A stretch of 64,000 nt of DNA from a virus. This document shows, one piece after another, positions 2,087 through 19,775 of this stretch. The stretch is taken from positions 1 to 64,000 of IMG/VR virus record IMGVR_UViG_3300033144_003327; one strand, 5' to 3'. Position 1 is the stretch's first letter. Each line of letters starts with the position of its first letter. The translations under genes were made by a program, and so were the position numbers. The notes under the pieces were generated by a model that did not search any database, was not told where the DNA came from, and was given only the letters and a program-made list of their open reading frames with translations.

Positions 2087-2121
2087 CGTACAATAGGCGT
2101 ACCTTTTCAGAGGAGAATGAA

Positions 2122-2409: not shown

Positions 2410-2633
2410 AATGAAAATGGAAGCCAGCATTTCACAATTGGAGGACGTCATGACGTAACTGTAATCCTGTAGAGGAGCAATACTCATGGCTAGACCAAGT
2501 GATGGATCCGCCCCGAAGGGCGGGAAGAAGAATCGTAAGCACGGGCGCAACCGAAAATGGTGTGCAGCATACCGCCTACGTGGACAACGTGAAAAAAACA
2601 AAGTGAAAAAAGCCAAGCGAGAAAGGAGAAAGG

Positions 2634-3759: not shown

Positions 3760-4504
3760 CCGCAGATATTTTCACGGCGCTCGTGTGCTGTGGAACTCGT
3801 TCCAACATCACCACCGGGGCACTGCGGACAGGTTCTGGTGCCTAGCGTTTGGAGACGAAGAACTCGTTAACGATCTCCGACATCTCGGGATGCCTGTCGC
3901 AGATAATCCCGTGTTCCCAAGTGACTGTGTCATGAAGCGAGAGCTTACATGGCTCAATCACAACATGTACGATGACGATGCGATCAAGGCACTGTATTCT
4001 AGACTCATGTTGCCAAACCTTTTCCCTGACAGTGAAAGAGTCCTGTGGGTTGATGCTGATTCGAATTTCATTGGACCGATCTCTGAGCTTGACGATTTCA
4101 ATATGCATGGCAAGGTAATCGCCGGGCCGTTGACAAATAAAGAAGACGGTCTCAAAAAGAGAACAGGTCGAGGTGGTCAACATATCAGGACGGGAACCCT
4201 GCTCTTTGACACACAGAAATTCGTTGAAGGCGACTATATAGAGAAGTGTTTCGACGTTATGCGCCACCACTCAGACTTGATCGATGGGTCAGCATCAGAG
4301 TTCGTTATCAATTACGTCTTTAGAAACCAGGCGGCGGACCTGCCGAAACGGTATTCGTACTCTGCTAAGAGACAGGACGTCGGTAAAGGTGTCAAGCTAA
4401 TCCATTGGAGTATTATGGAGCCGTGGAATGCCAAACATACTGAACCAAAGCCACAGAAGGCTAAGGATCAAGTGGAAAGGTACTGGAAACCGTATGACTA
4501 TTAG
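3737..4504 (+). CDS. glycosyltransferase family 8-like paralog
   Basis: MLVVTACNRRYFHG..., LWVDADSNFIGP DxD motif; start chosen at internal ATG 3737 after upstream gene stop (3759). Confidence 0.55.
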   Translation: MLVVTACNRRYFHGARVLWNSFQHHHRGTADRFWCLAFGDEELVNDLRHLGMPVADNPVFPSDCVMKRELTWLNHNMYDDDAIKALYSRLMLPNLFPDSERVLWVDADSNFIGPISELDDFNMHGKVIAGPLTNKEDGLKKRTGRGGQHIRTGTLLFDTQKFVEGDYIEKCFDVMRHHSDLIDGSASEFVINYVFRNQAADLPKRYSYSAKRQDVGKGVKLIHWSIMEPWNAKHTEPKPQKAKDQVERYWKPYDY

Positions 4505-4513
4505 GAGATCACA

Positions 4514-5425
4514 ATGAAAGTTTTAGTCACAGGCGGGCAGGGTTTCATCGGTAGATACGTTTGTCAAGAGCTGAAGGATCGGGGGCATCAACCCGTCATC
4601 TTTGATAGGTATCATCGACGATTGCTGCCACCGGCCTCGGAATTCTTTCTGGGTGATGTGACAAGTCCTGCTGATTGTGCCGAAGCGTTCGCTCACGTTG
4701 ACGCGTTCATACATCTGGCAGCGGTGTTAGGGACGCAGGAGACGATACAGAACCCGACCCCCGCTGCCCACACGAACATCCTGGGCGGTCTGAATATGCT
4801 AGACGCTGCGGCGCAGTACAAGACGCCTGGCGTCTATATCGGAGTCGGCAACCATTGGATGAACAATACCTACTCAATCACAAAGACAACGATTGAACGA
4901 TTCGTTGACATGTATAACAATGAACGAGGGACGTGCATCAACATCGTACGAGCGATGAATGCCTACGGCCCGAGGCAAGAGCCAGCCCAACCCTACGGCT
5001 CCGCTCGTGTACGAAAGATCACGCCGTCGTTTATATGTAGAGCATTGAACAACGATCCGATTGAAATCTATGGTGACGGGTCACAGATTAGTGATATGGT
5101 GTACGTGGGTGACGTTGCCAAGGCTCTTGTCTTGGCGATGGAGCGAGCAGTGGACGGTATTCGTCTCAATAGAACAGTAGAGATTGGTCCAGCTGTCAGC
5201 AACACCGTTCTTGAAGTCGCCGAAATGATCAAGAGGCTCACCGCCAGCAAGAGTAATATCGTTCACTTGCCGATGCGACCGGGTGAGATACCTCATTCAA
5301 TCGTGAGTGCTGACATTGATACGCTCGAACAGATAAACATGTATCCAGCTGATCTTGCTGATCTTGAGTGGGGCATGGAGCGAACAATTGAATACTATAT
5401 AGGATACCTCCATGCCCACTCCTGA
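4514..5425 (+). CDS. NAD-dependent epimerase/dehydratase (extended SDR)
   Basis: MKVLVTGGQGFIGRYV Rossmann GxxGxxG at N-terminus; YxxxK-type SDR architecture; RBS GGAGATCACAATG. Confidence 0.7.
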   Translation: MKVLVTGGQGFIGRYVCQELKDRGHQPVIFDRYHRRLLPPASEFFLGDVTSPADCAEAFAHVDAFIHLAAVLGTQETIQNPTPAAHTNILGGLNMLDAAAQYKTPGVYIGVGNHWMNNTYSITKTTIERFVDMYNNERGTCINIVRAMNAYGPRQEPAQPYGSARVRKITPSFICRALNNDPIEIYGDGSQISDMVYVGDVAKALVLAMERAVDGIRLNRTVEIGPAVSNTVLEVAEMIKRLTASKSNIVHLPMRPGEIPHSIVSADIDTLEQINMYPADLADLEWGMERTIEYYIGYLHAHS

Positions 5426-6389
5426 GGATATTCAAGTCCATGTTCTTGACATGGAAATCAACGGTGGATGCAATTACAAATGTCAGATGTGTCCCCAGTC
5501 AGTCGGTCGCGAGAAGGCCTTCCTAAAGAAACTTCCGATGAACGTCTTCACGAAAGTGATAGACGATGCGATGCAGTACGGGCTCAAGACGGTTACACTG
5601 CACGGCAGCGGCGAGCCGTCACTGAACAGAGACTTTCCCGACTACGTGAGGGAAGTCAAAGACAGAGGTCTGCAATGTATTTCGTTCACGAATGGGCTCC
5701 GCTTAAGAGAGAAGCTGAGCGAAGAGTTGATCGATGCAGGGATCGACATCCTCCGTCTCTCTTGCATCGGGTATGACAAGCGTACCTACACGAAGTGGAT
5801 GGCTGGCGGTGACTACGACATGGTCCGCGCCAATGCGCAACGATTCGTTGACATGGCTAGGGGAACGGCTACACAGATGCACATCAACCATCTTATCATT
5901 GACCAGGATGATCTCGAATACGAAGTCAGAACGTATAGAAAGAATTGGGGACGGCACACTGGAGCGTTCAGTGAAATCTGGCTCATGCACAATTGGGCCG
6001 ACAGCGATAAGATCGATATCAAATATCTACGGCGAGGCAAAAAGAGATCCTGCGGAAGACCGTTCTCTCCTCTCTTACAGGTCCGCGCTGGCGGACTTGC
6101 CGGTAGGAGAGCCGCCGTGGTTGCCTGCTGTATGGTTCTCGGACAGGACTCCAAGGGCGTCTTGGGACATCTTGACACTGACACCATCGCTGATGTCGTT
6201 AGTTCTGCAGAGTATCACAAACTTCGTCTGGCGCATACGGAAGAAAGATTCAACGACATAGAGGTCTGCAGAAACTGCGACCAGCTTTACGACGTACCAG
6301 AGTCATTGGTCTGGAGCGATATCCCTGGCCGCGCGTACGAGCAATCAAAGAACCTCGCCACTCTTAACTTCGGTGACTACCATAAATGA
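5412..6389 (+). CDS. radical SAM enzyme with Cys-rich (SPASM-like) C-terminal region
   Basis: CNYKCQMC (CxxxCxxC) near N-terminus, GSGEPSL glycine motif, extra Cys pairs near C-terminus (CGRPF, CCMV, CRNCDQ). Confidence 0.65.
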   Translation: MPTPEDIQVHVLDMEINGGCNYKCQMCPQSVGREKAFLKKLPMNVFTKVIDDAMQYGLKTVTLHGSGEPSLNRDFPDYVREVKDRGLQCISFTNGLRLREKLSEELIDAGIDILRLSCIGYDKRTYTKWMAGGDYDMVRANAQRFVDMARGTATQMHINHLIIDQDDLEYEVRTYRKNWGRHTGAFSEIWLMHNWADSDKIDIKYLRRGKKRSCGRPFSPLLQVRAGGLAGRRAAVVACCMVLGQDSKGVLGHLDTDTIADVVSSAEYHKLRLAHTEERFNDIEVCRNCDQLYDVPESLVWSDIPGRAYEQSKNLATLNFGDYHK

Positions 6390-6413
6390 TTTGGGGCTTA
6401 TGTAAAGTGAAGG

Positions 6414-6456
6414 CTTGTGTTCGTGAGTCAAGGCTATACTATTAGAACTGAAGCTA
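6414..6456 (+). promoter_or_regulatory. class-1 conserved promoter-like element (copy 1 of 4)
   Basis: CTTGTGTTCGTGAGTCAAGGCTATACTATTAGAACTGAAG; shared with 23211, 24845, 32118; -35 like TTGTAA / -10 like TACTAT/TATTAA, followed by AGAAAGGAAG RBS. Confidence 0.45.
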
Positions 6457-6480
6457 AATAAACGTTAAGGAGAAAGGAAG

Positions 6481-7224
6481 ATGGCTAAGAAGATGGTAAA
6501 TTTAATCGCGCATTGCGGCGCCAACTACGTAGAGCGAAATGCTCTGTCTGGTCCGGTACTGCCTGCGTCCACAGAAACATTCACGCCTATCGGGCATGAC
6601 TATTTCGTAGACCTGGTTGAAGATCAACTCAACGAACGCAACCTGAAAGTCGTTAACAGCGGTTTCGCTCTCGGCAATGAAGGTTCCAACATGTTTGGTG
6701 TGTTGGAAATCGGTCACGCTAAGAACGATGAGTACGCAACGATTATCGGTCTGCGTAACAGCCATATCAAATGGTTCGCAGCGTCTATCGCATGTGGAAG
6801 CGGCGTGTTCGTATGTGACAATATGGCCTTCAGTGGTGAAGTCACAGTCGGTCGAAAGCATACGTCACTCATTCTTGATGACCTGCCTTCGATTATCAAC
6901 GAGGCAATCGATGGAGTCATCACGTTGAAAGACGAGCAGGCTAATCGTTACGAGGCCTACAAAGGACGCCAGCTGGCAACCAATGAGGCTGAGTTCTTGG
7001 TAATCGAGATGCTGCGCCGGGGTGTTATCAACACCGGTCGCGTCGAGAAGGTCATCGCTGAGTGGGACGCACCCACGCATCGTCAGTTCTCAAAGACTGG
7101 TGACAGCGGTTGGAGAATGTTCAACGCAGCCACCGAGGCGCTGAAGGGATTGTCAATGAATGAGTTGGCACCCCGCACTCGGAACCTGCACACCTTGATG
7201 GACGAGGTCTGCATCGCTGCATAA
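6481..7224 (+). CDS. DUF932-like phage/plasmid protein (tentative)
   Basis: LRNSHIKWFAASIACGSGVFVCDNMAF resembles conserved NSH...G...C.N core of DUF932 family; otherwise uncharacterised. Confidence 0.3.
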   Translation: MAKKMVNLIAHCGANYVERNALSGPVLPASTETFTPIGHDYFVDLVEDQLNERNLKVVNSGFALGNEGSNMFGVLEIGHAKNDEYATIIGLRNSHIKWFAASIACGSGVFVCDNMAFSGEVTVGRKHTSLILDDLPSIINEAIDGVITLKDEQANRYEAYKGRQLATNEAEFLVIEMLRRGVINTGRVEKVIAEWDAPTHRQFSKTGDSGWRMFNAATEALKGLSMNELAPRTRNLHTLMDEVCIAA

Positions 7225-7498
7225 AGAAGTCTAAGGCGAGGCTGCCGTGTTCAGTCCGCATAGGCGATCAGCTGGCACCTTAGGGTAGCGGGGCGCACGG
7301 GCCCTGCCAGCACCAAGACTCGGGACCTACCTGGCAGAAGATTGAAGTCAGAATAGGATCCTATTAAACGGGGCTGGTCCTCCCAAGTAAAATGGACTTA
7401 GGTGGCCCCGACAAGAGCGGGAAGGGGATGGTTCGATAGGATAACTCGACCCAGTAACCGGACACTCAGGGGCCACCCCTTATTCACAAGGTAATGAT

Positions 7499-7792
7499 AT
7501 GTCTGAACTAACAAAAATTATCACCGTCACATGCCCCTCGAATGTTGATTGGGGGCTTGACTTCACGAGTGACAGCGGTGTTGAGTATCACATGACGTTC
7601 TCTTTGGAGCGCGGATACTCATGCAACTGCAAGGGCTTCACATATCGCGGCTGGTGTAAACACGTCAGGGATACGGAACTAACTCTACAGCGGTGTGGCT
7701 GGGGCGAAGATTCCTACGCGAACACTATACGTGATGACGAATTCTGTCCTGAATGTGGGGAGAAGACTCACGCATTCTACATTGGAGTCTAG
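7499..7792 (+). CDS. SWIM zinc-finger protein
   Basis: CNCKGFTYRGWCKH = CxCx(n)CxH SWIM signature; second CPEC pair at C-terminus. Confidence 0.5.
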   Translation: MSELTKIITVTCPSNVDWGLDFTSDSGVEYHMTFSLERGYSCNCKGFTYRGWCKHVRDTELTLQRCGWGEDSYANTIRDDEFCPECGEKTHAFYIGV

Positions 7793-7838
7793 TCTTGTAT
7801 TGACCGCTAGATTTCTGTACAGTGTCATCCAAAGTTAG

Positions 7839-8315
7839 GTGAAAGGAATAATGAGAAAGAAAGACTTAAAAGTGCGCCATTATATTATTGGTCGAGTCAA
7901 CCACAAGGTTGCTATCCTCGGTCACTGCTCGTCAGTTGACAATGCTACACGAGCCTCTATCGTGTTGGACGGGATACCCTGCTCCTTCCATACCGATCTC
8001 TACAACAGCCTAGATGCCGAAGATTTCTGGACCCTGTATGAAGACGTCATGGGAGTGAAATTGAGTAGACAACTCATCACAAACCAGATGGCAATCGATC
8101 TTTGGGACAAGTTAGAGGTGACAAAGATACCACACCTCATAAAACCCGGCGCCAAAAAAGTGCTGCGTGAACTCTACTCCTATCCTGGGATGAGTTGGTC
8201 AAAAGAAGAACTCATGATGTTCGTGGCCGGCGGCAAGTGGGACACGATTAGAACGGGTATGAGTGACATGAAATTTAAAATCAAAAAAGTAAGAGGTCAA
8301 TATGTTCGGCAATAA
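7839..8315 (+). CDS. hypothetical protein
   Basis: 158-aa ORF with RBS GAAAGGAATAATG; no recognisable motif. Confidence 0.3.
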   Translation: MKGIMRKKDLKVRHYIIGRVNHKVAILGHCSSVDNATRASIVLDGIPCSFHTDLYNSLDAEDFWTLYEDVMGVKLSRQLITNQMAIDLWDKLEVTKIPHLIKPGAKKVLRELYSYPGMSWSKEELMMFVAGGKWDTIRTGMSDMKFKIKKVRGQYVRQ

Positions 8316-9015
8316 TCCAATAAGAAAGCAGGACCTATCCTCGCCAAACCAGCTGTGGGTGCAAGAGGTGTTCCCTACCATACAGGGTGAGGGTCCCTTT
8401 GCTGGACTGCCCGCGATATTTGTTCGCCTTGCGGGGTGTAACCTCAGGTGCTGGTGGTGTGACACAGATTTCGAATCGTCTACATGGCGTCCAGACATAC
8501 CCGACCTGGTGCAATCAATTGTCGATGCGGGTGAACACATAAAGACTGACCTTGTCGTACTCACAGGAGGCGAGCCGTTCAGGCAAGACATATCAGAGCT
8601 CGTTCATGAGTTGTTAGGATTGAAGTACCGTGTCCAAATTGAAACAAACGGTATAGCCTGGATCCCAGATTTTGAAAGGTACCTCGTCACTGACAGGTGT
8701 ACCATTGTCGTGTCACCAAAAACGGGACGCGTCCATGACAAGATAGAGATGTATGCCAGGGCATGGAAGTACATCGTCAGTGCAAATGATTGTGACAAGG
8801 AAGATGGCCTCCCTGCTATGAGTACTCAACGCGCAGACAAGAGATTACATCTGGCGCGGCCACCAGAGGATGGCCCTGCAGAGATATACGTTCAGGCGTT
8901 GGACGAGTACGATGAAAAGAAAAACAAAGCGAACAACGATCACGCTGTGAGCCTAGTCAAGAAGTACGGTTACCGATTGAGCTATCAAATTCATAAACAT
9001 CTGGGGTTGCCATGA
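8302..9015 (+). CDS. queE: 7-carboxy-7-deazaguanine synthase QueE (radical SAM)
   Basis: FPTIQGEGPFAGLPAIFVRLAGCNLRCWWCDT matches QueE signature FxxxQGEGxxxGxPxxFxRxxGCNLxCxxCDT. Confidence 0.8.
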   Translation: MFGNNPIRKQDLSSPNQLWVQEVFPTIQGEGPFAGLPAIFVRLAGCNLRCWWCDTDFESSTWRPDIPDLVQSIVDAGEHIKTDLVVLTGGEPFRQDISELVHELLGLKYRVQIETNGIAWIPDFERYLVTDRCTIVVSPKTGRVHDKIEMYARAWKYIVSANDCDKEDGLPAMSTQRADKRLHLARPPEDGPAEIYVQALDEYDEKKNKANNDHAVSLVKKYGYRLSYQIHKHLGLP

Positions 9016-9311
9016 ACCTTAACACGATATCATTTGAAGAGGTTTTGAAATTCTACATGGGGTCGATCAAAGACTCTGGATTCTCTGAAGAACAACTCAG
9101 GGCCGCCGAGTTCGCATTCGTTGCTGGCATGAAAGCGGGGTGCGGCGTACAACAGAACAGGTTGGCCCGGTTAGTGTTAGAGATTCGCATGAAAGGTGAG
9201 GAAGAAAAGAAACGAATCTTCCCTGCGATGGCCGATGTGTGCGCAAAGGTCATGGTTGATTTGGAAAAATTAAATATGGATGTCTTAGGCATCCCCTATG
9301 GGACAGGATGA
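9012..9311 (+). CDS. hypothetical protein embedded in deazaguanine cluster
   Basis: 99-aa ORF translationally coupled (ATGA) between queE and queD. Confidence 0.3.
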   Translation: MNLNTISFEEVLKFYMGSIKDSGFSEEQLRAAEFAFVAGMKAGCGVQQNRLARLVLEIRMKGEEEKKRIFPAMADVCAKVMVDLEKLNMDVLGIPYGTG

Positions 9312-9775
9312 TGGAAACTAGAATCACAGCCACACGCTATCACGACTTCAGTTGTGGCCATAGGGTAGTCGGTCATGAAAGTAAATGTCGTTGGCTCCAC
9401 GGTCATAACTATCGAGTGACATTCAGTGTGGAGGCCGACTTCAATCCAGTCACAGGGCGCGGCAAGTTGGATCACGTTGGCCGTGTCGTTGACTTTAGTG
9501 TCATCAAATCTGAGCTGTGCCAATGGCTCGAAGATAATTGGGATCACCGTTTCCTAATGTGGAGAGAGGATCCGTACCTGAAAATCATTAACGAAGATGA
9601 CATGCCGAGCTGTGGTATCCAACCGGTCCCATTTAATCCAACGGCGGAGAATATGGGTGAGTTCTTGATCAACAATGTAGCACCGTCATTGCTATCGCCC
9701 TACCACGTGAAGTTGGTCAAAGTAATCGTAGAAGAAACGCGGAAGTGTTCCGCAGAGGTATCATTATGCGACTGA
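9308..9775 (+). CDS. queD: 6-carboxy-5,6,7,8-tetrahydropterin synthase QueD
   Basis: CGHRVVGHESKCRWLHGHNY (CxxH...HGH zinc motif of PTPS/QueD family). Confidence 0.8.
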   Translation: MMETRITATRYHDFSCGHRVVGHESKCRWLHGHNYRVTFSVEADFNPVTGRGKLDHVGRVVDFSVIKSELCQWLEDNWDHRFLMWREDPYLKIINEDDMPSCGIQPVPFNPTAENMGEFLINNVAPSLLSPYHVKLVKVIVEETRKCSAEVSLCD

Positions 9776-10173
9776 GAGAGAAGTTCCCCGGTAAAACTAG
9801 ATCCCGTGGGTTGAAGGGAAAGGTTTGCGCGGTAAGTTTGAATTCAACATCAAGTGAAGACTCGATAATACTCAGGATCACACTCAGTGAAGATCTCTTG
9901 AGTGAGATGGGATTGGCACTCGGTATGCGAGTCGATATGGATATTGCCGATGGCGTTGATCCGATAGAGATGCTCATCTACGGTGTGGAGGAGGGCGGCT
10001 GGAAGATCCTAGCCAGCGGTGTAACGGGTGACCATAAACACGGTATGATTGTTCCGGTGCTCGCAGTCAGTACCGCACCAGTCAAGAGTGAACGCGCAGA
10101 GATAAAATCCATCGCGGATTATCGTGTGCGCATTGTCGTACCACTGAAGGTTGCAGAGGCATTACAACTATGA
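9766..10173 (+). CDS. hypothetical protein embedded in deazaguanine cluster
   Basis: 136-aa ORF, ATG 9766 overlaps queD stop; coupled to queC. Confidence 0.3.
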
Positions 10174-10895
10174 ATCAGACAGGAAGGGATATAGACCGAG
10201 CAGTCGTCGTGTACAGTGGCGGCATGGATTCATTCACTGTTCTCCATGAGGCTATAGCACGACACGAAGAAGTCTTCGCAGTGTCGTTCAACTATGGACA
10301 ACGCCACAGCAAGGAACTCTCATTTGCTCACGTGGTTTGTGCGATGTATGACATCCCTCATCGTGTCGTTGACTTGCGAAACGTGAGTGGTTTGATTCAA
10401 GGCTCCTCGTTGACGTCTGACATTGACGTACCCGAAGGTCACTACAGTGAAGAGAATATGAAGGCGACGGTCGTTCCAAATAGGAACATGATTATGATCA
10501 GTTTGGCTGTCGGGTACGCCGTCAGCAAGGACTGCCGTAGTGTCTACGTCGGTGCCCACGCCGGTGATCATGCGATCTACCCGGACTGTCGTAAGGAATT
10601 CTTTGAGGCCTTAAACATGGCGACAGTCATCGCCAACTACACACCAGTCAGCATCTGCACACCATTCATTGATCTTTCCAAAGGCGACATACTAGCGACC
10701 GGAAAGGGACTAGGCCTTGAGGCGAAAGATTATCAACTGACTTGGACTTGCTACAACGGACGCGAACAAGCCTGCGGCAAGTGTGGCGCCTGCGTTGAAC
10801 GGTTGGAGGCGTTTGCTCAATGCGGATGGGACGATCCTCTAGATTACGAAGACCGAGAGTTCTGGGTCGACGCGGTGTCGAGAGCAGGGGTATGA
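10170..10895 (+). CDS. queC: 7-cyano-7-deazaguanine synthase QueC
   Basis: [11 protein letters not shown]-loop, C-terminal CxxC...CxxC zinc site ([11 protein letters not shown]). Confidence 0.85.
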
Positions 10896-11455
10896 GCGGA
10901 TCTCGTAACGGTAGGATGGGGGCGTGCCAATACCTCCTGCGGGCAATCGGTGAAGATCCAAAACGGGGTGGACTTGTTGAGACTCCGCAGCGGTTTGAAA
11001 AAGCGTGGGCCTTCTGGACAAAAGGATACGATGAGGACCCCGAAAAGATAATGAAAGTATTTGAAGACGGAGGAGAAAGTTATGACCAGATGGTCTTGGT
11101 TAGAAATATTCCGGTGTATAGTCATTGTGAGCATCATCTTGCTGCTATCTTTGGCGTGGCTCATGTGGGGTATATCCCAGACGGAAGGATCGTCGGACTC
11201 TCAAAACTCAACAGAGTTGTGGATTGCTTTTCACGCAGACTCCAAGTCCAAGAGCGACTCACTGATCAAATTGCAGGATCCATTCATGATGTACTGTCGC
11301 CAAGAGGAGTTGCTGTCCAACTGGTCTGTCGGCACTTGTGCATGGAAAGCCGTGGAGTCTGTCAACAAGGACACGAAACAGTCACCACCGCCCTTAGAGG
11401 ATTGATGAAGACAGATGAAGGAGCCAAGCGAGAATTCTTAGACCAAGTGAGGTAG
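10892..11455 (+). CDS. folE: GTP cyclohydrolase I FolE
   Basis: [31 protein letters not shown] motifs; start at ATG 10892 overlapping queC stop (ATGA). Confidence 0.8.
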
Positions 11456-11460
11456 AGGCG

Positions 11461-11862
11461 ATGCATAGAGTCATCAGTTGTCTGAAAGAGTTCCACGAGG
11501 CTTTTGGGTTGCCGACGGCAGATGAACCTGGCCTGGTGACGATAGAACGTCGGCACTTGAGGATGAAGCTACTTGAAGACGCCTACCACGAGTACAGGTA
11601 CGCAGCAAGAGCGGATAACTTGCTCAAGGTTGCCGAGTCACTCGCAGACATGGCATACGCTATCGGCGGCGCGGCCCTCGAGTACGGTATACCTATTGAC
11701 AAGATCTTTCTTGAGGTGCATAAGAGCAACATGAGCAAATTGATTGACGGACAACCAAACCTAAGAGAAGACGGGAAGGTGCTGAAGGTTCCCGGATATC
11801 ATAAACCAGACGTCGCGGCTGTGTTGTGCGACGAATTGTATGGAGAAGAAGATGCCCGGTGA
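11461..11862 (+). CDS. MazG-like nucleotide pyrophosphohydrolase
   Basis: 133 aa, EFHEAFGLP...E..E pattern of phage MazG/HisE-like all-alpha NTP-PPase. Confidence 0.6.
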   Translation: MHRVISCLKEFHEAFGLPTADEPGLVTIERRHLRMKLLEDAYHEYRYAARADNLLKVAESLADMAYAIGGAALEYGIPIDKIFLEVHKSNMSKLIDGQPNLREDGKVLKVPGYHKPDVAAVLCDELYGEEDAR

Positions 11863-12430
11863 TGATAAAGACGAGTTCGTGGACCACGTATGGATTACGA
11901 CGTTCACGGACAGGAAGTTCCACCTCCACGGTGATGACCCAGACGACATTGACATGGTTGATATCGCCCACGCCCTGAGTAACCAATGCAGGTTCACAGG
12001 TCACGTGAGACGATTCTATTCAGTGGCGCAGCATTCATGTCTGGTGGCCGACATTGTCCGATTGACGGGCGGCACGTTTGAAGAGGGCCGCTCTGCTCTG
12101 TTGCATGACGCGAGTGAAGCCTACCTTAGCGACTTGGCCGCACCTTTTAAGCGACAGGTCACAGGATACAAAGAAGTTGAACTGAAAATAGAGGCACGTA
12201 TTGAGGCCAAGTATAACCTTGTAGGGAAGACTGATGTCGTCAAGAAAGCTGACTGGCTCGCCTTGTTTGTTGAAGCTGAGAATCTTATCAACGCTGATCC
12301 TACACAGTGGGTCGGCTGGGATGAACACGGTGAAGAAGCCCTGGCACTACGGATAGAAATCATTGCTCAGTTGCCGTATTCAGCAGAGAATCAATTCCTA
12401 GACTACGCCAAGGAATTAGGTATCATATAA
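11840..12430 (+). CDS. HD-domain phosphohydrolase (YfbR-like 5'-deoxynucleotidase)
   Basis: VAQHS ... LLHDASEAYLSDL HD signature. Confidence 0.6.
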   Translation: MEKKMPGDDKDEFVDHVWITTFTDRKFHLHGDDPDDIDMVDIAHALSNQCRFTGHVRRFYSVAQHSCLVADIVRLTGGTFEEGRSALLHDASEAYLSDLAAPFKRQVTGYKEVELKIEARIEAKYNLVGKTDVVKKADWLALFVEAENLINADPTQWVGWDEHGEEALALRIEIIAQLPYSAENQFLDYAKELGII

Positions 12431-13122
12431 TGAGTGCACTCAAAGACAGCGTTGACAAAATTGTCACGACATACTTCACAGCGATTACGCGCAAGCCGTT
12501 CACGTATAAAGGGCAGTCTTATTTCCCTCAAGACGTTCGCGTATCGCCAGGCGTGTTTCGTGGGTATACTTGTCCTACGAATTGTGGTGGGTGTTGTCAT
12601 CGGTTCAGCCTTGACTACCTGCCTATTGAGCCTCGTCCTCCAGGAAACGATAGATTCAGTACGCGATTGGTTGAGTTCAACGGTAAAGAATTTGAAATCT
12701 ATTCTGATACGCAACAAGATCATGACGACCATCACTGCATCAATGTCAACAAAAAAGGTGATGGTCCGCAGGTCGTAGATCCAAAAGTGGGTCTCGGTCG
12801 GTGCCAAATACACGGACACCATCCGTTCACTTGCGACTTTGAGCTGTTAAGATTTTCGCACACTGCTAAACCTGAACGACCAAACTATATCAATCAACGA
12901 TTGTACGGACGCGGCTGGGCCATGCTTCGGGTAGATGGTGAGCGCGGTGCCAAATGTGAAATGATCACAGGTGACCCAACCTGGAGAGCCGATACTCAGA
13001 GAAGAATTGGTAGGTTGATGCACTGGGCAGACTTTTTTGGACTGGATCATTGCCTGCTAGAAATCATCGGTTGGGTGGCGACTGGTCCCCATACTGAACC
13101 ACTATTTATCAAGAACACATGA
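12430..13122 (+). CDS. Cys-cluster protein, CxxxCxxCC (YkgJ/UPF0153-like) - unassigned member of deazaguanine cluster
   Basis: [14 protein letters not shown] then [20 protein letters not shown]; located between HD hydrolase and queF. Confidence 0.35.
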
Positions 13123-13133
13123 AGGAGAATGAA

Positions 13134-13679
13134 ATGAACGACCAAACAAAGGGCCTGAAGGCTCTTGGATCAGGAGAAACGAACTATGAATACGAAGGCG
13201 CGAATGCTGATCTACTCGAAAAGTTCGTTTCCCCGTTCTGGGCGGCACCAAGGGAAGGTGACGACGATAATGACGAGCATCATATCGTTCGCAATCCAGT
13301 CGGAGCGGCCGGTAGTGTGCATATTGAAATCCCGGAGTTTACTTCGCTATGTCCGCTCACTGGTCAACCTGACTTCGCTACCATTATCATTGACTACCTT
13401 CCCCGTGAATGGTGCGTGGAATCTAAGTCTCTCAAACTGTATATTGGTTCGTTTCGTAATTCAGGGGAGTTCCATGAGAGCTGTACCTGTCGAATCATCA
13501 ACGATCTTGTGGCACTGCTAGATCCCTACAAGATCCAGGTCCAGGGCAGGTTCACGCCACGCGGTGGCATTCCTTTTTGGCCTGACGCGCAATGGATACA
13601 CCCTGACGTCCACACAGGTGGGCAGCCAGCACCGAAGTCGCAGATTCTAACACCGGGGCGAAACATCTTGAAAGCGTGA
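13134..13679 (+). CDS. queF: NADPH-dependent 7-cyano-7-deazaguanine reductase QueF
   Basis: [17 protein letters not shown] and [18 protein letters not shown] QueF motifs; start at ATG 13134 seven nt after AAGGAG. Confidence 0.8.
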
Positions 13680-13716
13680 ATTTCGTCTCGCGATGATTAT
13701 CAAATTAAGGATCCTG

Positions 13717-13863
13717 ATGGTATTAAAACTGAAAGAGATATGGGGTGACTGGAAATGCAAACTCTTCCACAAGACCCATTGGAAATGGAACGTAAGCAAG
13801 GATCTTCCCTTTGGAGGTAACTATTGGGAATGTCAAAAATGCGGTAGAGGCTGGCGCGTATGA
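13717..13863 (+). CDS. small zinc-ribbon protein
   Basis: 48 aa, CKLFH...CQKCG; ATGA overlap with downstream dpdA-like gene. Confidence 0.25.
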   Translation: MVLKLKEIWGDWKCKLFHKTHWKWNVSKDLPFGGNYWECQKCGRGWRV

Positions 13864-14783
13864 ATCTTTTCTTCTCAGGTGTTGGCAAAGGAGTTATTGA
13901 AGTTGATGAAAGACTCGGATCTCCCAGATTTCGGTTGTTTTCCTGTCATGGAGCGTATTTCAAATATGCCCAAAAAACGGGACCACTGGTCTCATCAATC
14001 GACGATAATTTTGAAATCATGCTTGACTCCGGAGCCTTTACTGCTTGGACGAAAGGAGATGAGGTTACACTTGACCACCTTATCCGTGACTATTCAACCC
14101 TCATTGAAGACTTTGGATATCCCATCGAAAAGATATGGCTCATCAACCTTGACAAGATTCCTGGCGCGCCGGGTCGAACGGCTAGCGAGGAAGAGGTGGA
14201 AGAAGCAATTAAAATCAGCGATGAGAATTTTAACAGACTAGAGGAGGTGTTCGGTGCGAGAGTCGTCCCGGTTTTTCACCAAAATGAGAATGAAGCCCGG
14301 TTGGCGGTGGTCGCAGACATGGCTCAATATATTTGCATTTCTCCTAGGAACGATCTTGGGGAGCGCCATCGTCGTACATGGTCTCAAGAAGTCCACGCCA
14401 AACTCCCTCCAGGAATCAGAACCCACGGTCTCGCAACCACAGGTTTCCCGATGATGACGAAAGTGCCGTGGCACAGCGTAGATTCCGCGACCTGGATTAT
14501 GATCGCGGCGTATGGACACGTCTATTTCAATCGACGTCTGCAGACGATGAGTATTTCGGACGACAGCCCAAATATCCATGAAGCCGATAAACACTACATG
14601 AATATCATAGATGAACAGAAAGAAGTGATGGAAGGCCTGATGAAAAAGTGGGGATTCACACATGACGGTCTCCGCAGCGATTTTGTTGAGAGGGCGATAT
14701 GGAATAGACTAATGATGAGCGAGTTGTATCGCTCCGTGGGTGATATCCACGTACCAATGCAAGAGGGGTTATTTGAGCTATGA
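13860..14783 (+). CDS. dpdA: DpdA-like 7-deazaguanine DNA transglycosylase (TGT superfamily)
   Basis: LDSGAFTAW resembles TGT catalytic DSGGFQ motif, TIM-barrel-sized 307 aa, no C-terminal TGT zinc motif, sits directly after queF in preQ1 cluster. Confidence 0.55.
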   Translation: MNLFFSGVGKGVIEVDERLGSPRFRLFSCHGAYFKYAQKTGPLVSSIDDNFEIMLDSGAFTAWTKGDEVTLDHLIRDYSTLIEDFGYPIEKIWLINLDKIPGAPGRTASEEEVEEAIKISDENFNRLEEVFGARVVPVFHQNENEARLAVVADMAQYICISPRNDLGERHRRTWSQEVHAKLPPGIRTHGLATTGFPMMTKVPWHSVDSATWIMIAAYGHVYFNRRLQTMSISDDSPNIHEADKHYMNIIDEQKEVMEGLMKKWGFTHDGLRSDFVERAIWNRLMMSELYRSVGDIHVPMQEGLFEL

Positions 14784-14877
14784 AGATGAACATTAAAATT
14801 GGAAACGTGACAGTGAACTGGGTATCGGTAGTTCTCGTGCTCGTGGCATGGGGCGTGATAATGTGGGTATCGTTCGC

Positions 14878-15351
14878 ATGAAGGCTTGGCTGAAAGTAAT
14901 TAAACTGGGCCTTTTTGGCAAGGTTGCGATTAAGATAGCGGCACCGTTCGTGGTGCCGTTCTTGTCACCTGAAGAAAGGATGGATCATCACTGGTTCGGT
15001 GTCAGGGATGCAACTGACGTCGGATACTGGAATATCGCGTTCAGAAACGCGGGCCATAACATGTTCACTAGACCGATGCCCAAATACACGACCACCGGGA
15101 ACACGGACGATCAGACACTTGAAAAACTAGACGGATTCCAATGGCGTTACCGCGTCAGCCTCAGTGGCCAATATGTCAGTTTTCGTATGACTTGGGGAGC
15201 ACCATCCAACAAAGGCAAAAAAGAGTTCTATATCGGGTGGGTGATGAATGAAACGAGTTATATGCGATTGTCCTTCTTCCAGTTTCGCCCAGGAATTTTC
15301 GGATGGATATTTATCGCTTGGTTGATTTACACCCTAACGGTGATTTTCTGA
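14878..15351 (+). CDS. hypothetical protein with C-terminal TM helix
   Basis: ORF 14848..15351, probable start MKAWLK; hydrophobic C-terminus IFGWIFIAWLIYTLTVIF. Confidence 0.3.
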   Translation: MKAWLKVIKLGLFGKVAIKIAAPFVVPFLSPEERMDHHWFGVRDATDVGYWNIAFRNAGHNMFTRPMPKYTTTGNTDDQTLEKLDGFQWRYRVSLSGQYVSFRMTWGAPSNKGKKEFYIGWVMNETSYMRLSFFQFRPGIFGWIFIAWLIYTLTVIF

Positions 15352-15423
15352 TGGCTGAGATACGAACGATCGTACACATTATGACACCATTTAGAGATAC
15401 GCTTGATGACTTGAGGAAAGCCA

Positions 15424-16251
15424 ATGCACGTCGTAATTCACGCAAACAACGTTCCGTGGCAGGTGGAGTACCTGGACCGGTTCATAAAGGGGTTCGAGAA
15501 ACACGGGATGACAGTGGGGACGGTTCCAAATGACGTAGCGATACCTGATGCGATAAACGTCGTCTTCGCCAACAACTCGTGGAAGAAGACAGTCGCTACC
15601 TGTAGCCTGACTGGAATCCCTCTGCTGACAGTCAACCGCTGCTTTTTTGGATCGCGCCACGATATGGTCGCTATAGGGTGGAAGGGGTTCAACGGTGACG
15701 CTGACTTCAGTCTCCAACCGTTCATGCCGGATGACAGGTGGCTGAAACACGGTTTTCAAATGCCTGAATGGCAGGAAGAGAAGGATGGATATGTCTTAAT
15801 CTGTGGTGAATTCAGAGACATGTCTAACTGGTATCGTTCCCTTGACAAAGAGTTGCAGGGGATGAATGTTCGGTTTAGGCCACATCCGTTCACGAACAAA
15901 ATACCCGCGGCGTGGGAACGTGCGCCAGGCAAATTACAGGACGATATCGAAACGGCGCTGGAAGGCGCGCGGGTCTGTATCACGTACGATTCAATCGCAG
16001 GCTGTGACGCAGTACTAGCCGGCGTACCGTCTGTCGCTTACGGCAGAAAGAGCATGGCACGACCAGTCAGTTGTTCCAGCTGGAAGGAGTACTTGGCTGG
16101 CAAGGCACTGCCGAAACGACTGCCGTGGGCGAGCCGGCTCGCATATTGCCAATGGGACCACGAGGAGATTGAAAATGGAGACTTTTGGACACATCTCAGT
16201 TCCGGAAAATCTTATACCCCAGCCGCCATTCGACATTCGGCCCGCCCTTGA
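15424..16251 (+). CDS. hypothetical protein (possible GT-B-type transferase)
   Basis: 275 aa; GYVLICGE...RPHPF...VCITYDSIAGCDAVLAGVPSV resembles C-terminal Rossmann half of GT-B/TagF-like transferases; weak. Confidence 0.3.
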   Translation: MHVVIHANNVPWQVEYLDRFIKGFEKHGMTVGTVPNDVAIPDAINVVFANNSWKKTVATCSLTGIPLLTVNRCFFGSRHDMVAIGWKGFNGDADFSLQPFMPDDRWLKHGFQMPEWQEEKDGYVLICGEFRDMSNWYRSLDKELQGMNVRFRPHPFTNKIPAAWERAPGKLQDDIETALEGARVCITYDSIAGCDAVLAGVPSVAYGRKSMARPVSCSSWKEYLAGKALPKRLPWASRLAYCQWDHEEIENGDFWTHLSSGKSYTPAAIRHSARP

Positions 16252-16498
16252 TCATCCTAATGAAGAGCATGAGCGCAGATGGAAGGATCGTGTATGGTTA
16301 AGGGATGAGGGTCGTTGTACGTGGTGCAGAAAGTTTGAAGAATATGTGAATCGAATAGAGGTACACCATTTGACTTATGAAAGATTCGGACGAGAAGAAC
16401 CAGGAGACGGATGCCTGCTCTGCGACACTTGCCACAGTGCTGTTACACAGGAAACCAGGACGCGGCGGCGGTTGCGGCAAAGCCAAGAAAAGATATGA
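16169..16498 (+). CDS. HNH endonuclease
   Basis: CTWCRK...EVHHLTYERF...CLLCDTCH = CxxC..HH..CxxC HNH signature; start uncertain (overlaps upstream ORF). Confidence 0.6.
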   Translation: MKMETFGHISVPENLIPQPPFDIRPALDHPNEEHERRWKDRVWLRDEGRCTWCRKFEEYVNRIEVHHLTYERFGREEPGDGCLLCDTCHSAVTQETRTRRRLRQSQEKI

Positions 16499-16636
16499 AT
16501 CAGCGAGAGCGGCCAGGTCCCAGCTCTTGAAATACGCCGCCAAAGAAAAGACACCTTTTGGATCGTGGTATTGGTGCAAATACTGCACATCGTATCACGT
16601 GACAAGTAAACCAGCTGATGGGAAGTTTAGACAATT

Positions 16637-17617
16637 ATGAATATGCTTGACACCTTAAACCTGGTCCGCGGCGCAGTCAATGATCGAAATCTCGTGTCAG
16701 TGCTGACTCACTTCTGTATCCACGAGGGACAGATATACGGCAGCAACGGCAAGATGTCGATCCAGGCGCCGTTCCCAATACTGCGTGAAGAGCCGATAAT
16801 CGTCAACGCTGACAAATTCCTGAAAGCGGTTGACAAGTGCGATGGCGATCCGATATTTGAGATCGTCGATGAGCACCTCATACTGAGGAGCAAACGTCGC
16901 AAAGCAAGAAAGATCCGGTTACCTTTGTCAACGGATGTCTACGCGAAACCGATCGTGTCAGGTAAACGGTATGAGCTCGAGGATGGATACCGCGCCGCAA
17001 TCATTAAGGTGAGAGATTTCGTATCAAAGGACGCGTCGCGTCCCTGGGCGATGGGCGTCCTGCACATGAACGATCATCTCTACGCCACCAACAATGTCGT
17101 GTTGGTGCGCACGAAGTATTCGTGGCCGCCCGAGTTTCCAGTATTTGGCCTCCCCGGCTTCACGGTAGATGAACTCTGCAGGATCAGCCTCGGCCTATCG
17201 CCAAAGTATCTCTGGCACGAAGACAATGCAATCGCATTTGAGTTCGAGGATGGAATTTGGCTGAGGTCCGTCTTGTATGCTGCTAATTGGCCAGACGTCG
17301 AGAAGATGATACCCGACATGAAAGATCTTCCAGAGTTGCCGAGTGACATGCGAGAGGTCACTGAGGATTTGGTTCCGTTCAATGAAGATGACAAGTTTCC
17401 CATCGTTCAGTTCAAAGGGCGGACCATAAAAACGTTAGACGGTGGAATGGTAGCGGAGGACGAGTTGGCAGGGGAGGTGGCAGAAGCCGCTTTTCACGCG
17501 ATTCCGCTCCAGATGGTTCTTTCCCAGGCTGAGAGAATGGATCTATCGCCTTATCCAAAGCCATGCCCATGGTTAGGTAGGGGGTTAGAAGGCATAATCA
17601 TAGGAGTTCGTACATGA
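16637..17617 (+). CDS. DNA polymerase sliding clamp (beta-clamp-like), tentative
   Basis: 326 aa immediately upstream of PolA; N-terminal LVRGAVNDRNLVSVLTHFCIHEGQIYGSNGKMSIQAPFP resembles DnaN domain I. Confidence 0.35.
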   Translation: MNMLDTLNLVRGAVNDRNLVSVLTHFCIHEGQIYGSNGKMSIQAPFPILREEPIIVNADKFLKAVDKCDGDPIFEIVDEHLILRSKRRKARKIRLPLSTDVYAKPIVSGKRYELEDGYRAAIIKVRDFVSKDASRPWAMGVLHMNDHLYATNNVVLVRTKYSWPPEFPVFGLPGFTVDELCRISLGLSPKYLWHEDNAIAFEFEDGIWLRSVLYAANWPDVEKMIPDMKDLPELPSDMREVTEDLVPFNEDDKFPIVQFKGRTIKTLDGGMVAEDELAGEVAEAAFHAIPLQMVLSQAERMDLSPYPKPCPWLGRGLEGIIIGVRT

Positions 17618-17788
17618 GCAAATTCAGTAGGTGGTGGTGGGGTTTGGATCTCGGGCCAGATTATTGGCGAGGTTTCAGGCGCCGCATGTTCGTGTACGCC
17701 GTCCTCGGATACATCATATTCTTCATTATCCCTGACATGTGGGAATGGTTCGTGATTAACTTCTCCTACCGTGGCGAGGTTTCATGAG
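17615..17788 (+). CDS. small membrane protein
   Basis: 57 aa, W-rich with TM helix (VYAVLGYIIFFIIP), ATGA overlaps at both ends. Confidence 0.25.
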
Positions 17789-19775
17789 TCGATGGGACTC
17801 TATTGGCGTGGCGTGGGAAACGCCCACCAAAGAGAAGAAGAAAGGCGGGGGATATATCAGCACAGTGAGACCAGCGATACCTGAGACACAGTGGAACAGG
17901 CCAACTGAATTTCCAAATCTATCAGCGGCGAAGATGATTGCAGTTGATTTAGAGACACGCGACCCGCAACTGCTACAAAAAGGCCCGGGTCCTCGACGCA
18001 AGGAGGAAGAAGGCGGGTTCATCGCAGGTATAGCGGTTGGCGTTGGCCCGCGTGATGGCGAACAATGGTACTTCCCGATGCGCCATGAAAGTGGCGGCGC
18101 CAATTTTGATCCAGATATGGTTCTTATGTGGGCCAGGGATCAATTATGCAGGCCTAATCAACCGAAACTAGGTGCCAACCTCATGTACGATTTGGACTGG
18201 CTCCAAGACGCGGACGTCCCTGTAGAAGGCCCGTTTTATGACGTCCAAGTAGCAGAACCCCTAATTGATGAGAACGCTTTCAGTTATGCTCTCGGCAAAC
18301 TGGCTGACAAGTATGTCGGCGAAGGAAAGACCGAAGACGCGATGTACGAGTGGCTCTCTCTCGCATTCGGCGGCCAGCCTACACGTAGAGACCAAGGCGG
18401 AAACATCTGGAGAGCTCCCGCACAACTCGCGGGACCATATGCGGAAAGTGACGTTAGACTACCCTTCCTGATATGGGAAGAACAACAGAAAATAATCAAG
18501 CACGAAAACCTGGAGAAGGTGCTTGATCTGGAGACTCGTTTGATTCCGCTCCTATTGGCGATGAAAATTCGCGGCGTAAGGGTTGACACAAGTCAAGCGG
18601 CTGAACTTGACGAGGTCCTGGTCAAAAAGGCAACCGAATTCAGAGAACGGCTCATGGAATTCAACCTTGATCCCCAGAGCCGAGACTCGTTGGAGGGATA
18701 TTGCAATGAGCGCGGCATAAAATTCAAACGAACACCTGCTGGTAACTCATCATTTCCTGGCAAGTGGTTAGAGAAACATCAAGACGAGAATCTGAATCTA
18801 GCATATCAAGTTAGGAGGTTAGAGAAACATGCGGGTACATTTATTGAAGGAACGGTGCTTGGGAACGCTATTAACAACAGAATTCACGGACAATTCCATC
18901 AACTGCGAAACGATGATTATGGCGCGGTATCAGGAAGATTCAGTAGCTCTAATCCCAATCTCCAAAATATCCCGGCGCGAGACGAAGAGCTTGGGCCTCT
19001 CATTCGCGGACTATTTCTGCCTGAGCCTGATGAGGTTTGGTACTGCGATGATTGGTCGCAAATTGAATACCGGCTCCTCGTTCATTACGCAGTTGGTGAT
19101 GGTGCCGATCGAACCAGACGAAAATATTGCGACGACCCGACGACCGACTTCCACAAATACGTCGCCCAAATAGCCGACATCGATCGCAAAGAGGCGAAGA
19201 ACATCAACTTCGGCCTCGTGTACGGAATGGGCGAGCCGGCAATGGCGGCCAACATGGGAAGGTCACTCAAAGAAATCAAACCGATATTCAACGAATACCA
19301 CAAAGAGCTCCCGTTTGTGAGAGAGACCTACAACAAGGTCCAGAAGAGAGCTGAACGGCGTGGGTACATTCACACTCTTTTCGGTCGCCGACGACGCTTC
19401 AATTTGTGGGAACCGAAGAATTGGAACGAAGCGCGGGCCAACACCGCCAAACCTCACGCGGTAGCGATCGAGAAGTGGGGCGAGCAGTGGATTAAAAGAG
19501 CTGGTGGCCACAAGGCGTTAAACGCTCTACTTCAAGGCGGCGCGGCTGACATCATGAAAGTAGCGATGGTCGACATCTGGGAGAGCGGCGTCTGTGACGT
19601 TCTTGGCGCACCTCTGCTGACTGTCCATGATGAATTGAACTGGTCAGCACCGCAGACAAAAGAAGCGGATGAAGCCCACCAGACTGCTTTAGAAATTATG
19701 GAAACCTGCGTAGACTTGCGCATACCGCTGAAAGTAACGACAGGAAAAGGAGACAGTTGGGGTGCCGCCAAATGA
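17784..19775 (+). CDS. polA: DNA polymerase I family A with 3'-5' exonuclease domain
   Basis: IAVDLETRD (exo I), RKEAKNINFGLVYGMG (motif B), LTVHDELNWS (motif C). Confidence 0.9.
   Translation: MSRWDSIGVAWETPTKEKKKGGGYISTVRPAIPETQWNRPTEFPNLSAAKMIAVDLETRDPQLLQKGPGPRRKEEEGGFIAGIAVGVGPRDGEQWYFPMRHESGGANFDPDMVLMWARDQLCRPNQPKLGANLMYDLDWLQDADVPVEGPFYDVQVAEPLIDENAFSYALGKLADKYVGEGKTEDAMYEWLSLAFGGQPTRRDQGGNIWRAPAQLAGPYAESDVRLPFLIWEEQQKIIKHENLEKVLDLETRLIPLLLAMKIRGVRVDTSQAAELDEVLVKKATEFRERLMEFNLDPQSRDSLEGYCNERGIKFKRTPAGNSSFPGKWLEKHQDENLNLAYQVRRLEKHAGTFIEGTVLGNAINNRIHGQFHQLRNDDYGAVSGRFSSSNPNLQNIPARDEELGPLIRGLFLPEPDEVWYCDDWSQIEYRLLVHYAVGDGADRTRRKYCDDPTTDFHKYVAQIADIDRKEAKNINFGLVYGMGEPAMAANMGRSLKEIKPIFNEYHKELPFVRETYNKVQKRAERRGYIHTLFGRRRRFNLWEPKNWNEARANTAKPHAVAIEKWGEQWIKRAGGHKALNALLQGGAADIMKVAMVDIWESGVCDVLGAPLLTVHDELNWSAPQTKEADEAHQTALEIMETCVDLRIPLKVTTGKGDSWGAAK

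Follow-up and report, generated by a model that had tools for sequence, protein, structure and literature searches.

Does an uncultured tailed phage carry a modified guanine in its DNA and, if so, which one? The question is raised by a gene cluster at 8302-14783 of a 64,000-nucleotide stretch (positions 1 to 64,000 of IMG/VR record IMGVR_UViG_3300033144_003327, hereafter the window), which encodes enzymes of 7-deazaguanine synthesis together with a putative DNA-guanine transglycosylase of the DpdA type. The window is a tailed-phage genome with genes for large terminase, portal, scaffold, major head protein and minor tail protein, and the cluster sits inside a long run of genes on the + strand. 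A preliminary description of the sequence had proposed that these genes place 7-aminomethyl-7-deazaguanine (preQ1) in the phage genome as its deoxynucleoside, dPreQ1. This interpretation is supported as far as sequence analysis reaches, its predictions at the sequence level having been borne out, and it is refined by the finding that one of the interspersed open reading frames (ORFs) is homologous to DpdM, which Cui et al. (2023; PMC10516641) described as a preQ1 methyltransferase. We consider it likely that the cluster encodes a preQ1-type system by which the phage modifies its DNA with 7-deazaguanine; this would yield dPreQ1 in phage DNA and convert part of it to the methylated form, mdPreQ1. 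The same gene set was already described in 2023 for Cellulophaga phage phiSM and VH7D-like vibriophages; this phage is a further example, not a new kind.

Between 8302 and 14783, the genes for QueE, QueD, QueC, FolE, QueF and the transglycosylase form a single + strand train with interspersed ORFs (Table 1). Profiles and motifs agree on all five synthesis genes that the preliminary description had named, although its inventory left out a MazG-like ORF and an HD-domain ORF. From QueE to DpdA, neighbouring genes are mostly joined by 4-nucleotide (nt) overlaps of the ATGA type, as where the FolE ATG at 10892 overlaps the QueC stop, and the other junctions range from -23 to +13 nt (overlaps of 1-23 nt or gaps of at most 13 nt). 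Given this spacing, the earlier wording "translationally coupled" is a fair description. Curated cut-offs are passed by QueC, FolE and QueF, while QueD and QueE were placed by best matches and motifs. For QueE, the five best NCBIfam matches are all QueE families, from E 3.6e-25 (TIGR04322) to 3.1e-19, each under its equivalog cut-off; the protein has the CxxxCxxC motif of radical S-adenosylmethionine (SAM) enzymes as CNLRCWWC and is 51-64% identical to the QueE of relatives, and its assignment is supported by its position and its 42% identity to phiSM QueE. QueD carries the signature CxxxHGH (CRWLHGH, in KCRWLHGHNY) and not LxxxHRHxF, the pair of signatures that separates QueD from DpdL, the 7-carboxy-7-deazaguanine decarboxylase (PMC10516641).

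The remaining enzymes bear on the identity of the end product. QueC is free of the glutamine-amidotransferase (Gat) domain, and QueF shows the motifs CPLTGQPD at residue 78 and ESKSLKLY at residue 101. The thioimide-forming role of the QueF cysteine is established enzymology. The motif that binds NADPH, E(S/L)K(S/A)hK(L/Y)(Y/F/W), is the criterion that separates QueF from the QueF-L amidinotransferase (PMC10516641), and by ESKSLKLY, the CPLTGQPD cysteine and a TIGR03139 score above cut-off, the window QueF is a genuine NADPH-type enzyme. No Gat-QueC, ArcS, QueF-L, DpdL or PF00551 formyltransferase is present among the ORFs scanned, and for the PurN-like dPreQ1 formyltransferase DpdN (PF00551) a Pfam scan of 29 ORFs (in 32-6389, 6481-17617 and 17784-21800) gave no match. 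The lack of Gat-QueC, ArcS and QueF-L points to preQ1 as the end base, and the lack of all five among the scanned ORFs argues against dG+, dDG and formylated fdPreQ1 as products.

The transglycosylase lies 3' of the pathway genes, with only the small ORF u56 between QueF and itself. As had been noted earlier, it is a TGT-superfamily ORF (TGT, tRNA-guanine transglycosylase) with a DSGAF motif and no C-terminal zinc motif: LDSGAF stands at residues 55-60, and just two cysteines (C29 and C159) occur in 307 residues. With two cysteines and no CxCxxC...H, the TGT zinc site is absent. The protein matches phrog_887 ("queuine tRNA-ribosyltransferase") at 4.9e-43, and tblastn matched 175 phage records, including those with the genetically or chemically characterised DpdAs of Enterobacteria phage 9g (2e-14), Escherichia phage CAjan (2e-12), Pseudomonas phage Iggy (1e-17) and phiSM (3e-18). 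An AlphaFold2 model built with 44 metagenomic relatives in the alignment (predicted local distance difference test 92, predicted template modelling score 0.88) is predicted to adopt the TIM-barrel fold of the TGT superfamily; Foldseek agrees, and the nearest structure to the model is the bacterial DNA enzyme DpdA. Comparison with PDB sequences by phmmer, with the single sequence and with a seven-sequence profile, gave noise only, and when hhalign compared E. coli TGT with the 44-sequence family profile, the DSGxF motif alone was aligned (D56 with D89), at 1.4% probability.

Several residues are invariant between the window protein and the DpdAs of 9g, CAjan, phiSM and Mycobacterium phage Knocker, namely D56-S57-G58-A59, D98, H140, H189 and D208-S209. 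Of these, D56 (in LDSGAF) and D208 (in SVDSA) are shared by the whole window clade and may be the catalytic aspartates of the TGT site. H189 aligns with H196 of 9g and is invariant in the seven-sequence alignment as well as in 44 clade members; this conserved histidine is missing from DpdA2 (Hutinet et al., PMC6884629). The DpdA1 kind is defined by detectable similarity to the 9g-type DpdA, which DpdA2, DpdA3 and DpdA4 lack. By its similarity to phage DpdAs, its H189 and the lack of a zinc site, the product of 13860-14783 is filed as a DpdA of the DpdA1 kind and not as a tRNA TGT. The alignment offered no consistent specificity marker among residues that might separate QueF-linked from QueF-less DpdA1; an SPRND/SPAND segment and an insertion at 101-122 are common to the window clade and phiSM, and are not found in the QueF-linked DpdA of Knocker.

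These features bear on the possibility that the genes are auxiliary metabolic genes which boost host tRNA queuosine, with preQ1 feeding the bacterial TGT and the phage DNA left unmodified. Homologous genes are read as completing the host tRNA-queuosine pathway in the genome paper of Pseudanabaena phage Pan1, and the product of QueF is the exact base that bacterial TGT uses. Nevertheless, the window transglycosylase has no TGT zinc site and matches no tRNA-TGT profile, its nearest structural counterpart is the DNA enzyme DpdA, and it groups with phage DpdAs shown to modify DNA. It is also placed in a replication module beside the sliding clamp and PolA, as in Queuovirinae, and DpdM has been linked only to mdPreQ1 in DNA (PMC10516641). 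A purely tRNA-directed role is therefore regarded as very improbable.

The preliminary description had left five ORFs of the cluster unassigned and suggested that they might tailor the base by methylation or formylation. For the one at 12430 the suggestion of methylation holds, since this ORF is a homologue of DpdM, a validated preQ1 N-methyltransferase; for those given as 9012, 9766, 13717 and 14878 it found no support. By tblastn, the ORF at 12430-13122 matches Pan1_55 (49%, 2e-70), Knocker gp4 (44%, 1e-50), phiSM DpdM (37%, 3e-25) and the validated DpdM of Vibrio phage VH7D (30%, 1e-28, 93% coverage). In a five-way alignment, the CxxxCxxCC motif (CPTNCGGCC, residues 48-56) is invariant, and eight cysteines are invariant in all: C48, C52, C55 and C56, plus four beyond the motif, C103, C125, C135 and C176. 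In phiSM, C92, C102, C112 and C150 were proposed to complete two metal sites of DpdM (PMC10516641). All five aligned members give a weak match to PF03692, the YkgJ family. The gene lies directly upstream of QueF, and in cultured phages DpdM matches occur only in genomes that encode QueF.

The association of these genes was followed across metagenomes, where DpdA has 687 homologues. Eighty IMG/VR loci with 10-kb flanks were scored by tblastn with all window proteins. In the 51 loci whose DpdA is at least 38% identical, QueF was found in 50, the sliding clamp in 50, QueC and FolE in 48 each, QueE in 46 and DpdM in 11. The 29 loci with more distant DpdA contained FolE in 22, QueE in 21, QueC in 20, QueF in 16, the clamp in five and DpdM in none. 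Wherever DpdM was present, QueF directly adjoined it (11/11). The conserved core is QueE/QueD/QueC/FolE-QueF-DpdA beside clamp and PolA, and the FolE-QueF junction is a variable slot.

This pattern helps to judge whether the transglycosylase would use preQ1 or its precursor 7-cyano-7-deazaguanine (preQ0). The preliminary description had taken the presence of QueF as a sign that preQ1, and not preQ0, is inserted into DNA, a rule backed by published dPreQ1 in phiSM, HVTV-1 and Dp-1 (PMC10516641, PMC6884629) and by the preference of VH7D DpdA2, which inserts preQ1 at 2765 and preQ0 at 630-712 per 10^6 nt, about four times better (PMC10516641). Alternatively, DpdA could insert preQ0, so that dPreQ1 arises on DNA, or preQ0 stays the main modification while QueF serves otherwise. 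The DpdA1 enzymes of 9g, CAjan and Iggy, like all first-characterised DpdAs, insert preQ0, the window protein belongs to the DpdA1 sequence group, and VH7D DpdA2 itself still inserts preQ0, although less efficiently (PMC10516641). Against this, phage QueFs that bear the NADPH motif complement E. coli deleted for queF and so act on the free base (PMC10516641), QueF is co-encoded in 50 of the 51 clade loci, which argues for co-adaptation, and DpdM needs an aminomethyl acceptor. Insertion of preQ0 is for these reasons thought unlikely, if less so than a role confined to tRNA.

In the favoured scheme, FolE, QueD, QueE and QueC would convert GTP to the free base preQ0, and QueF would reduce preQ0 to preQ1 with NADPH. 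The DpdA1-type transglycosylase, whose TIM barrel has the TGT fold but no zinc subdomain, would then swap guanine for preQ1 in replicated double-stranded phage DNA, giving dPreQ1, and the DpdM homologue would methylate the aminomethyl nitrogen of part of it to give mdPreQ1. Such DNA would be expected to withstand the restriction enzymes of the host. The present analysis shows gene identities, motifs, fold, synteny and co-occurrence, while the choice of preQ1 over preQ0, DNA as the target, the methylation and the anti-restriction role we infer from what has been published on homologues.

Several points weigh against this scheme. Replacement of G in known dPreQ1 viruses runs from 1% to 30%, and its extent is not predictable for this phage. 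Searches of the curated TGT/DpdA profiles in Pfam (including PF01702), NCBIfam and PADLOC gave no match for the transglycosylase at E 0.01. The preliminary description had named the lack of a DpdA/TGT profile match as grounds for giving up the reading; taken literally, that is the outcome in these three collections, but it is overturned by three independent lines only, namely PHROG 887, the BLAST similarity to validated phage DpdAs and the fold. For the DpdA clade that includes the cultured Dinoroseobacter phages R5C and R26L and phage Pan1, no published DNA chemistry was found. The DpdA of phiSM is the sole QueF-linked DpdA1 tested heterologously and was inactive in E. coli, and direct insertion of preQ1 has been shown only for a DpdA2 (PMC10516641). 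Methylation of the dPreQ1 aminomethyl nitrogen has been shown for VH7D DpdM alone, in E. coli and at low yield, and published mdPreQ1 levels are 0.01-0.1% of G (PMC10516641). Given such tiny levels, the contribution of DpdM may be minor, or its main role may be different.

Among characterized systems, that of phiSM is alike in encoding a DpdA1, FolE/QueD/QueE/QueC, QueF and DpdM, with DpdM, QueF and DpdA as neighbours (Cui et al., 2023; PMC10516641). Identities between the window and phiSM are 37% for DpdM, 30% for DpdA and 46% for QueF, the phiSM DpdA is likewise of the DpdA1 type detectable from 9g, and the predicted products agree, with dPreQ1 major and mdPreQ1 minor (PMC10516641). However, phiSM belongs to another phage lineage and has another gene order, and the window adds the MazG-like, HD and lineage-specific ORFs. 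The window DpdA has a C-terminal helical region, whereas the 240-residue phiSM protein is without it, and a ParB-like gene beside DpdA in phiSM is missing from the window. With VH7D, the window shares the validated DpdM (30%, 1e-28) and its eight cysteines, and VH7D DpdA2 provides direct evidence that a QueF-linked DpdA inserts preQ1 (PMC10516641). Nevertheless, the DpdA2 of this Schizotequatrovirus has no counterpart of the conserved His and cannot be detected by BLAST with 9g DpdA (PMC6884629), unlike the DpdA1-like window protein, and VH7D is a 247-kb myovirus with dispersed genes and long insertions in DpdM.

The closest cultured homologues are found in Pan1 and in R5C and R26L (Nanhaivirus-like siphophages), in which the DpdA core is 43-49% identical. 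Megablast with the 6.5-kb region as query matched none of 50,697 phage records, so no cultured phage is closely related at the DNA level. Pan1 shares 49% identity in DpdM and 51% in QueF, and all three phages resemble the window in the module order QueD-QueC-FolE-QueF/DpdM-DpdA ... clamp ... PolA. The Pan1 DpdA (gp56, L001 9658-10959) has 433 residues with large insertions inside the conserved core, and tblastn aligns it with window residues 53-221 only. QueE stands apart from the cluster in Pan1, and R5C and R26L gave no DpdM match by tblastn. The papers on these phages offer in-silico readings only, as tRNA-queuosine auxiliary genes or "queuosine in DNA". In Knocker, gp2 (L004 1310-1702) is annotated "GTP cyclohydrolase I", yet it carries the QueF motif ESKSLKLY, is 39% identical to the window QueF and adjoins DpdA and a DpdM homologue. 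By this resemblance, Knocker is probably a member of the dPreQ1/mdPreQ1 group, with gp2 misannotated.

Queuovirinae such as 9g, CAjan and Iggy have DpdA1 proteins 25-29% identical to that of the window (1e-12 to 1e-17), share its invariant residues including 9g H196, and show the layout Que genes-DpdA-clamp-PolA. In contrast to the window they have neither QueF nor DpdM and make dG+ (via Gat-QueC) or dPreQ0 (PMC6884629). The plain QueC and the QueF of the window lead to the prediction of another end product. From bacterial Dpd DpdA (PDB 7ui4) and tRNA TGTs the window protein differs in that it gave no sequence-profile match, has no CxCxxC...H and is shorter (307 residues against 375-413 residues). 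Unlike bacterial Dpd, the window system is phage-encoded, and no DpdB or DpdC partners were identified.

Within and around the cluster, further ORFs are listed in Table 1. The MazG-like ORF is kept in the loci L087 (58% identity) and L011 (51%) and was found in only one of the 51 related loci at 1e-5; the HD-domain ORF has a 66% identical counterpart in L011, is missing from L087 and occurs in four of the 51. Both enzymes are optional accessories that probably act on nucleotide pools and may serve the system. L087 is the closest relative, with a DpdA 82% identical, and it keeps u99 (34%, in the same position), u135 (68%), MazG and DpdM (64%). A 97-residue ORF in the slot of u99 in L005 shows no similarity to it, and u99 has no Pfam, PHROG or PADLOC match; its membership of the pathway is not supported. 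The same three collections gave no family match for u135. Of 5.8 billion proteins just 17 are homologous to it, each at least 56% identical and encoded on closely related metagenomic contigs; by this distribution u135 is classed as lineage-restricted. The ORF u56 is possibly a small Cys/His protein and appears unconserved: tblastn found no match in any of 88 loci even at E 0.01, and where the window has u56, the QueF-DpdA gap of L087 measures 46 nt only. Similarly, u167, a neighbour of the cluster and a member at most by position, had no match in any of 88 related loci, and its slot in L087 holds a PagL-like ORF and other different ORFs. Judged by conservation, a tailoring role for u99, u135, u56 and u167 found no support, as they are lineage-restricted or unconserved.

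Table 1. Features of the 7-deazaguanine cluster of the window and the ORFs next to it, in genome order.
Feature	Length (residues)	Coordinates	Strand	Evidence or remark
QueE, 7-carboxy-7-deazaguanine synthase (radical SAM)	237	8302..9015	+	PF04055 1.7e-09; NCBIfam QueE families; CxxxCxxC
u99, between QueE and QueD	99	9012..9311	+	no family assignment
QueD, 6-carboxytetrahydropterin synthase	155	9308..9775	+	PF01242 (PTPS) 1.6e-24; TIGR03367 1.5e-18
u135, between QueD and QueC	135	9766..10173	+	no family assignment
QueC, 7-cyano-7-deazaguanine (preQ0) synthase	241	10170..10895	+	PF06508 8.1e-65; TIGR00364 211 bits (cut-off 150)
FolE, GTP cyclohydrolase I	187	10892..11455	+	PF01227 9.6e-68; NF006825 223 bits (cut-off 174)
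MazG-like nucleotide pyrophosphohydrolase	133	11461..11862	+	PF01503 1.9e-11; phrog_671 2.2e-27
HD-domain phosphohydrolase, like phage dNMP 5'-phosphatases	196	11840..12430	+	phrog_318 1.2e-49; weak YfbR-like Pfam match
DpdM homologue (YkgJ/CxxCxxCC family), predicted dPreQ1 N-methyltransferase	230	12430..13122	+	tblastn; cysteine motif; PF03692
QueF, unimodular NADPH-dependent preQ0 reductase	186	13119..13679	+	TIGR03139 134 bits (cut-off 86.9); PF14489 1.9e-30
u56 (13717 in the preliminary description)	56	13693..13863	+	no family match (Pfam, PHROG)
DpdA-type DNA-guanine transglycosylase, DpdA1 kind (predicted)	307	13860..14783	+	PHROG 887; BLAST to phage DpdAs; predicted fold
u167 (14878 in the preliminary description), hydrophobic N- and C-terminal segments	167	14848..15351	+	no family match (Pfam, PHROG)
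u275, glycosyltransferase-like, beta-Kdo-transferase-like fold (predicted)	275	15424..16251	+	fold; 3' of DpdA

The relative L005, with a DpdA 60% identical, is without DpdM, MazG and HD. Its FolE-QueF slot (7107-7679) holds a 190-residue ORF with no Pfam match, unrelated to the HD protein and without a DpdM match by tblastn. In L005, a class-I SAM methyltransferase (Methyltransf_23, 3807-4364) lies directly upstream of QueE, and a 2-oxoglutarate-Fe(II) oxygenase (1797-2360) is located further upstream; the methyltransferase and the 190-residue ORF were noted in L006 as well. This methyltransferase, the 190-residue ORF and the oxygenase could be alternative tailoring enzymes. As to regulatory elements in the window, no preQ1 riboswitch or any other Rfam family was detected at the gathering threshold in its whole length, nor at E <=1 in 6000-18000. 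In 6000-18000, sites resembling promoters or terminators did not exceed what shuffling leads one to expect, and no tRNA genes were found.

Downstream of the transglycosylase, u275 raises the question of whether dPreQ1 is an intermediate on the way to a bulkier, undescribed base, formed by u275, the small ORFs or upstream genes for family 8 glycosyltransferases (GT8), an epimerase and a radical SAM protein. The predicted fold of u275 is that of a glycosyltransferase, and in the four nearest relatives a homologue 30-68% identical lies 3' of DpdA, immediately beside it in L005 and L007; sugar-modifying genes abound in the window, and methyl and formyl groups are precedents for tailoring of dPreQ1 (PMC10516641). 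On the other hand, u275 was found in only two of the 51 related IMG/VR loci, and the small ORFs are unconserved. Its 85 homologues are all metagenomic, none with a Pfam domain, and distant ones are encoded in another phage's head module, with capsid and head-completion genes on either side, in a bacterial contig and in a methyltransferase-flanked replication module; a phage bearing one of them has no Que or DpdA genes. To our knowledge, no glycosylated deazaguanine is known in DNA. Further conversion of dPreQ1 to such a base thus seems highly unlikely. Because its distant homologues turn up in settings that lack deazaguanine genes, we rejected a dedicated partnership of u275 with DpdA as the main interpretation; u275 is probably a conserved neighbour, not part of the pathway. 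That u275, perhaps with sugars supplied by the upstream GT8/epimerase/radical-SAM genes, glycosylates the aminomethyl group of dPreQ1 with a sugar or sugar acid is given the slimmest chance of all; if true, a glycosylated 7-deazaguanine in DNA would be the DNA counterpart of glycosylated queuosine in tRNA.

An HNH endonuclease-like ORF of 109 residues (16169-16498, + strand, TTG start, PF01844 3.4e-04) shares 83 nt with the 3' end of u275, read in a different frame, and is kept in L087 (59%) and L011 (64%). Upstream of the cluster, the + strand encodes two GT8 glycosyltransferases (2977-3759 and 3632-4504), an NAD-dependent sugar epimerase/dehydratase (4514-5425) and a radical SAM/SPASM protein (5412-6389), a set (2977-6389) also conserved in L087; its target may be virion proteins, the host surface or DNA. 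Downstream of PolA on the same strand, a weak match to MptE-like (Maf-type) proteins (20378-21151) is followed by an FkbM-family methyltransferase (21111-21800) and an ORF at 21797-22486; the FkbM genes are the same in L087 and L005. The FkbM/MptE-like region and the upstream sugar genes suggest a phage-encoded modification pathway of the glycan or nonulosonic-acid type. Immediately upstream of QueE, the + strand carries a DUF932-like gene (6481-7224), a SWIM zinc-finger gene (7499-7792) and an ORF of 158 residues (7839-8315) that overlaps the QueE start by 14 nt; all three are conserved in L087, where they precede QueE in an unchanged order, and no link between them and the pathway emerged. 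Also on the + strand, the left end of the window encodes a UvrD-type helicase (32-1312) and a protein with an SPFH/Band 7 domain (1550-2086), the latter being an unusual phage gene.

With this cluster, an uncultured tailed phage of about 66 kb and a large metagenomic clade of relatives join the phages predicted to carry dPreQ1 or mdPreQ1 in their DNA. Beyond the clade and the DpdM-QueF-DpdA triad, it is one more ordinary case of a system that was described in 2019-2023. The recurrence of the tight triad strengthens the functional link for DpdM, an enzyme of unusual fold. The clade itself is of DpdA1 type and nearly always QueF-linked (50/51 loci), and it has cultured relatives in Pan1, R5C and R26L. 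The chemistry of one member would calibrate predictions for hundreds of metagenomic phages and would supply a direct demonstration that a DpdA1 can insert preQ1. In addition, such DNA may resist restriction digestion, and its modified bases could affect sequencing signals and base-calling.

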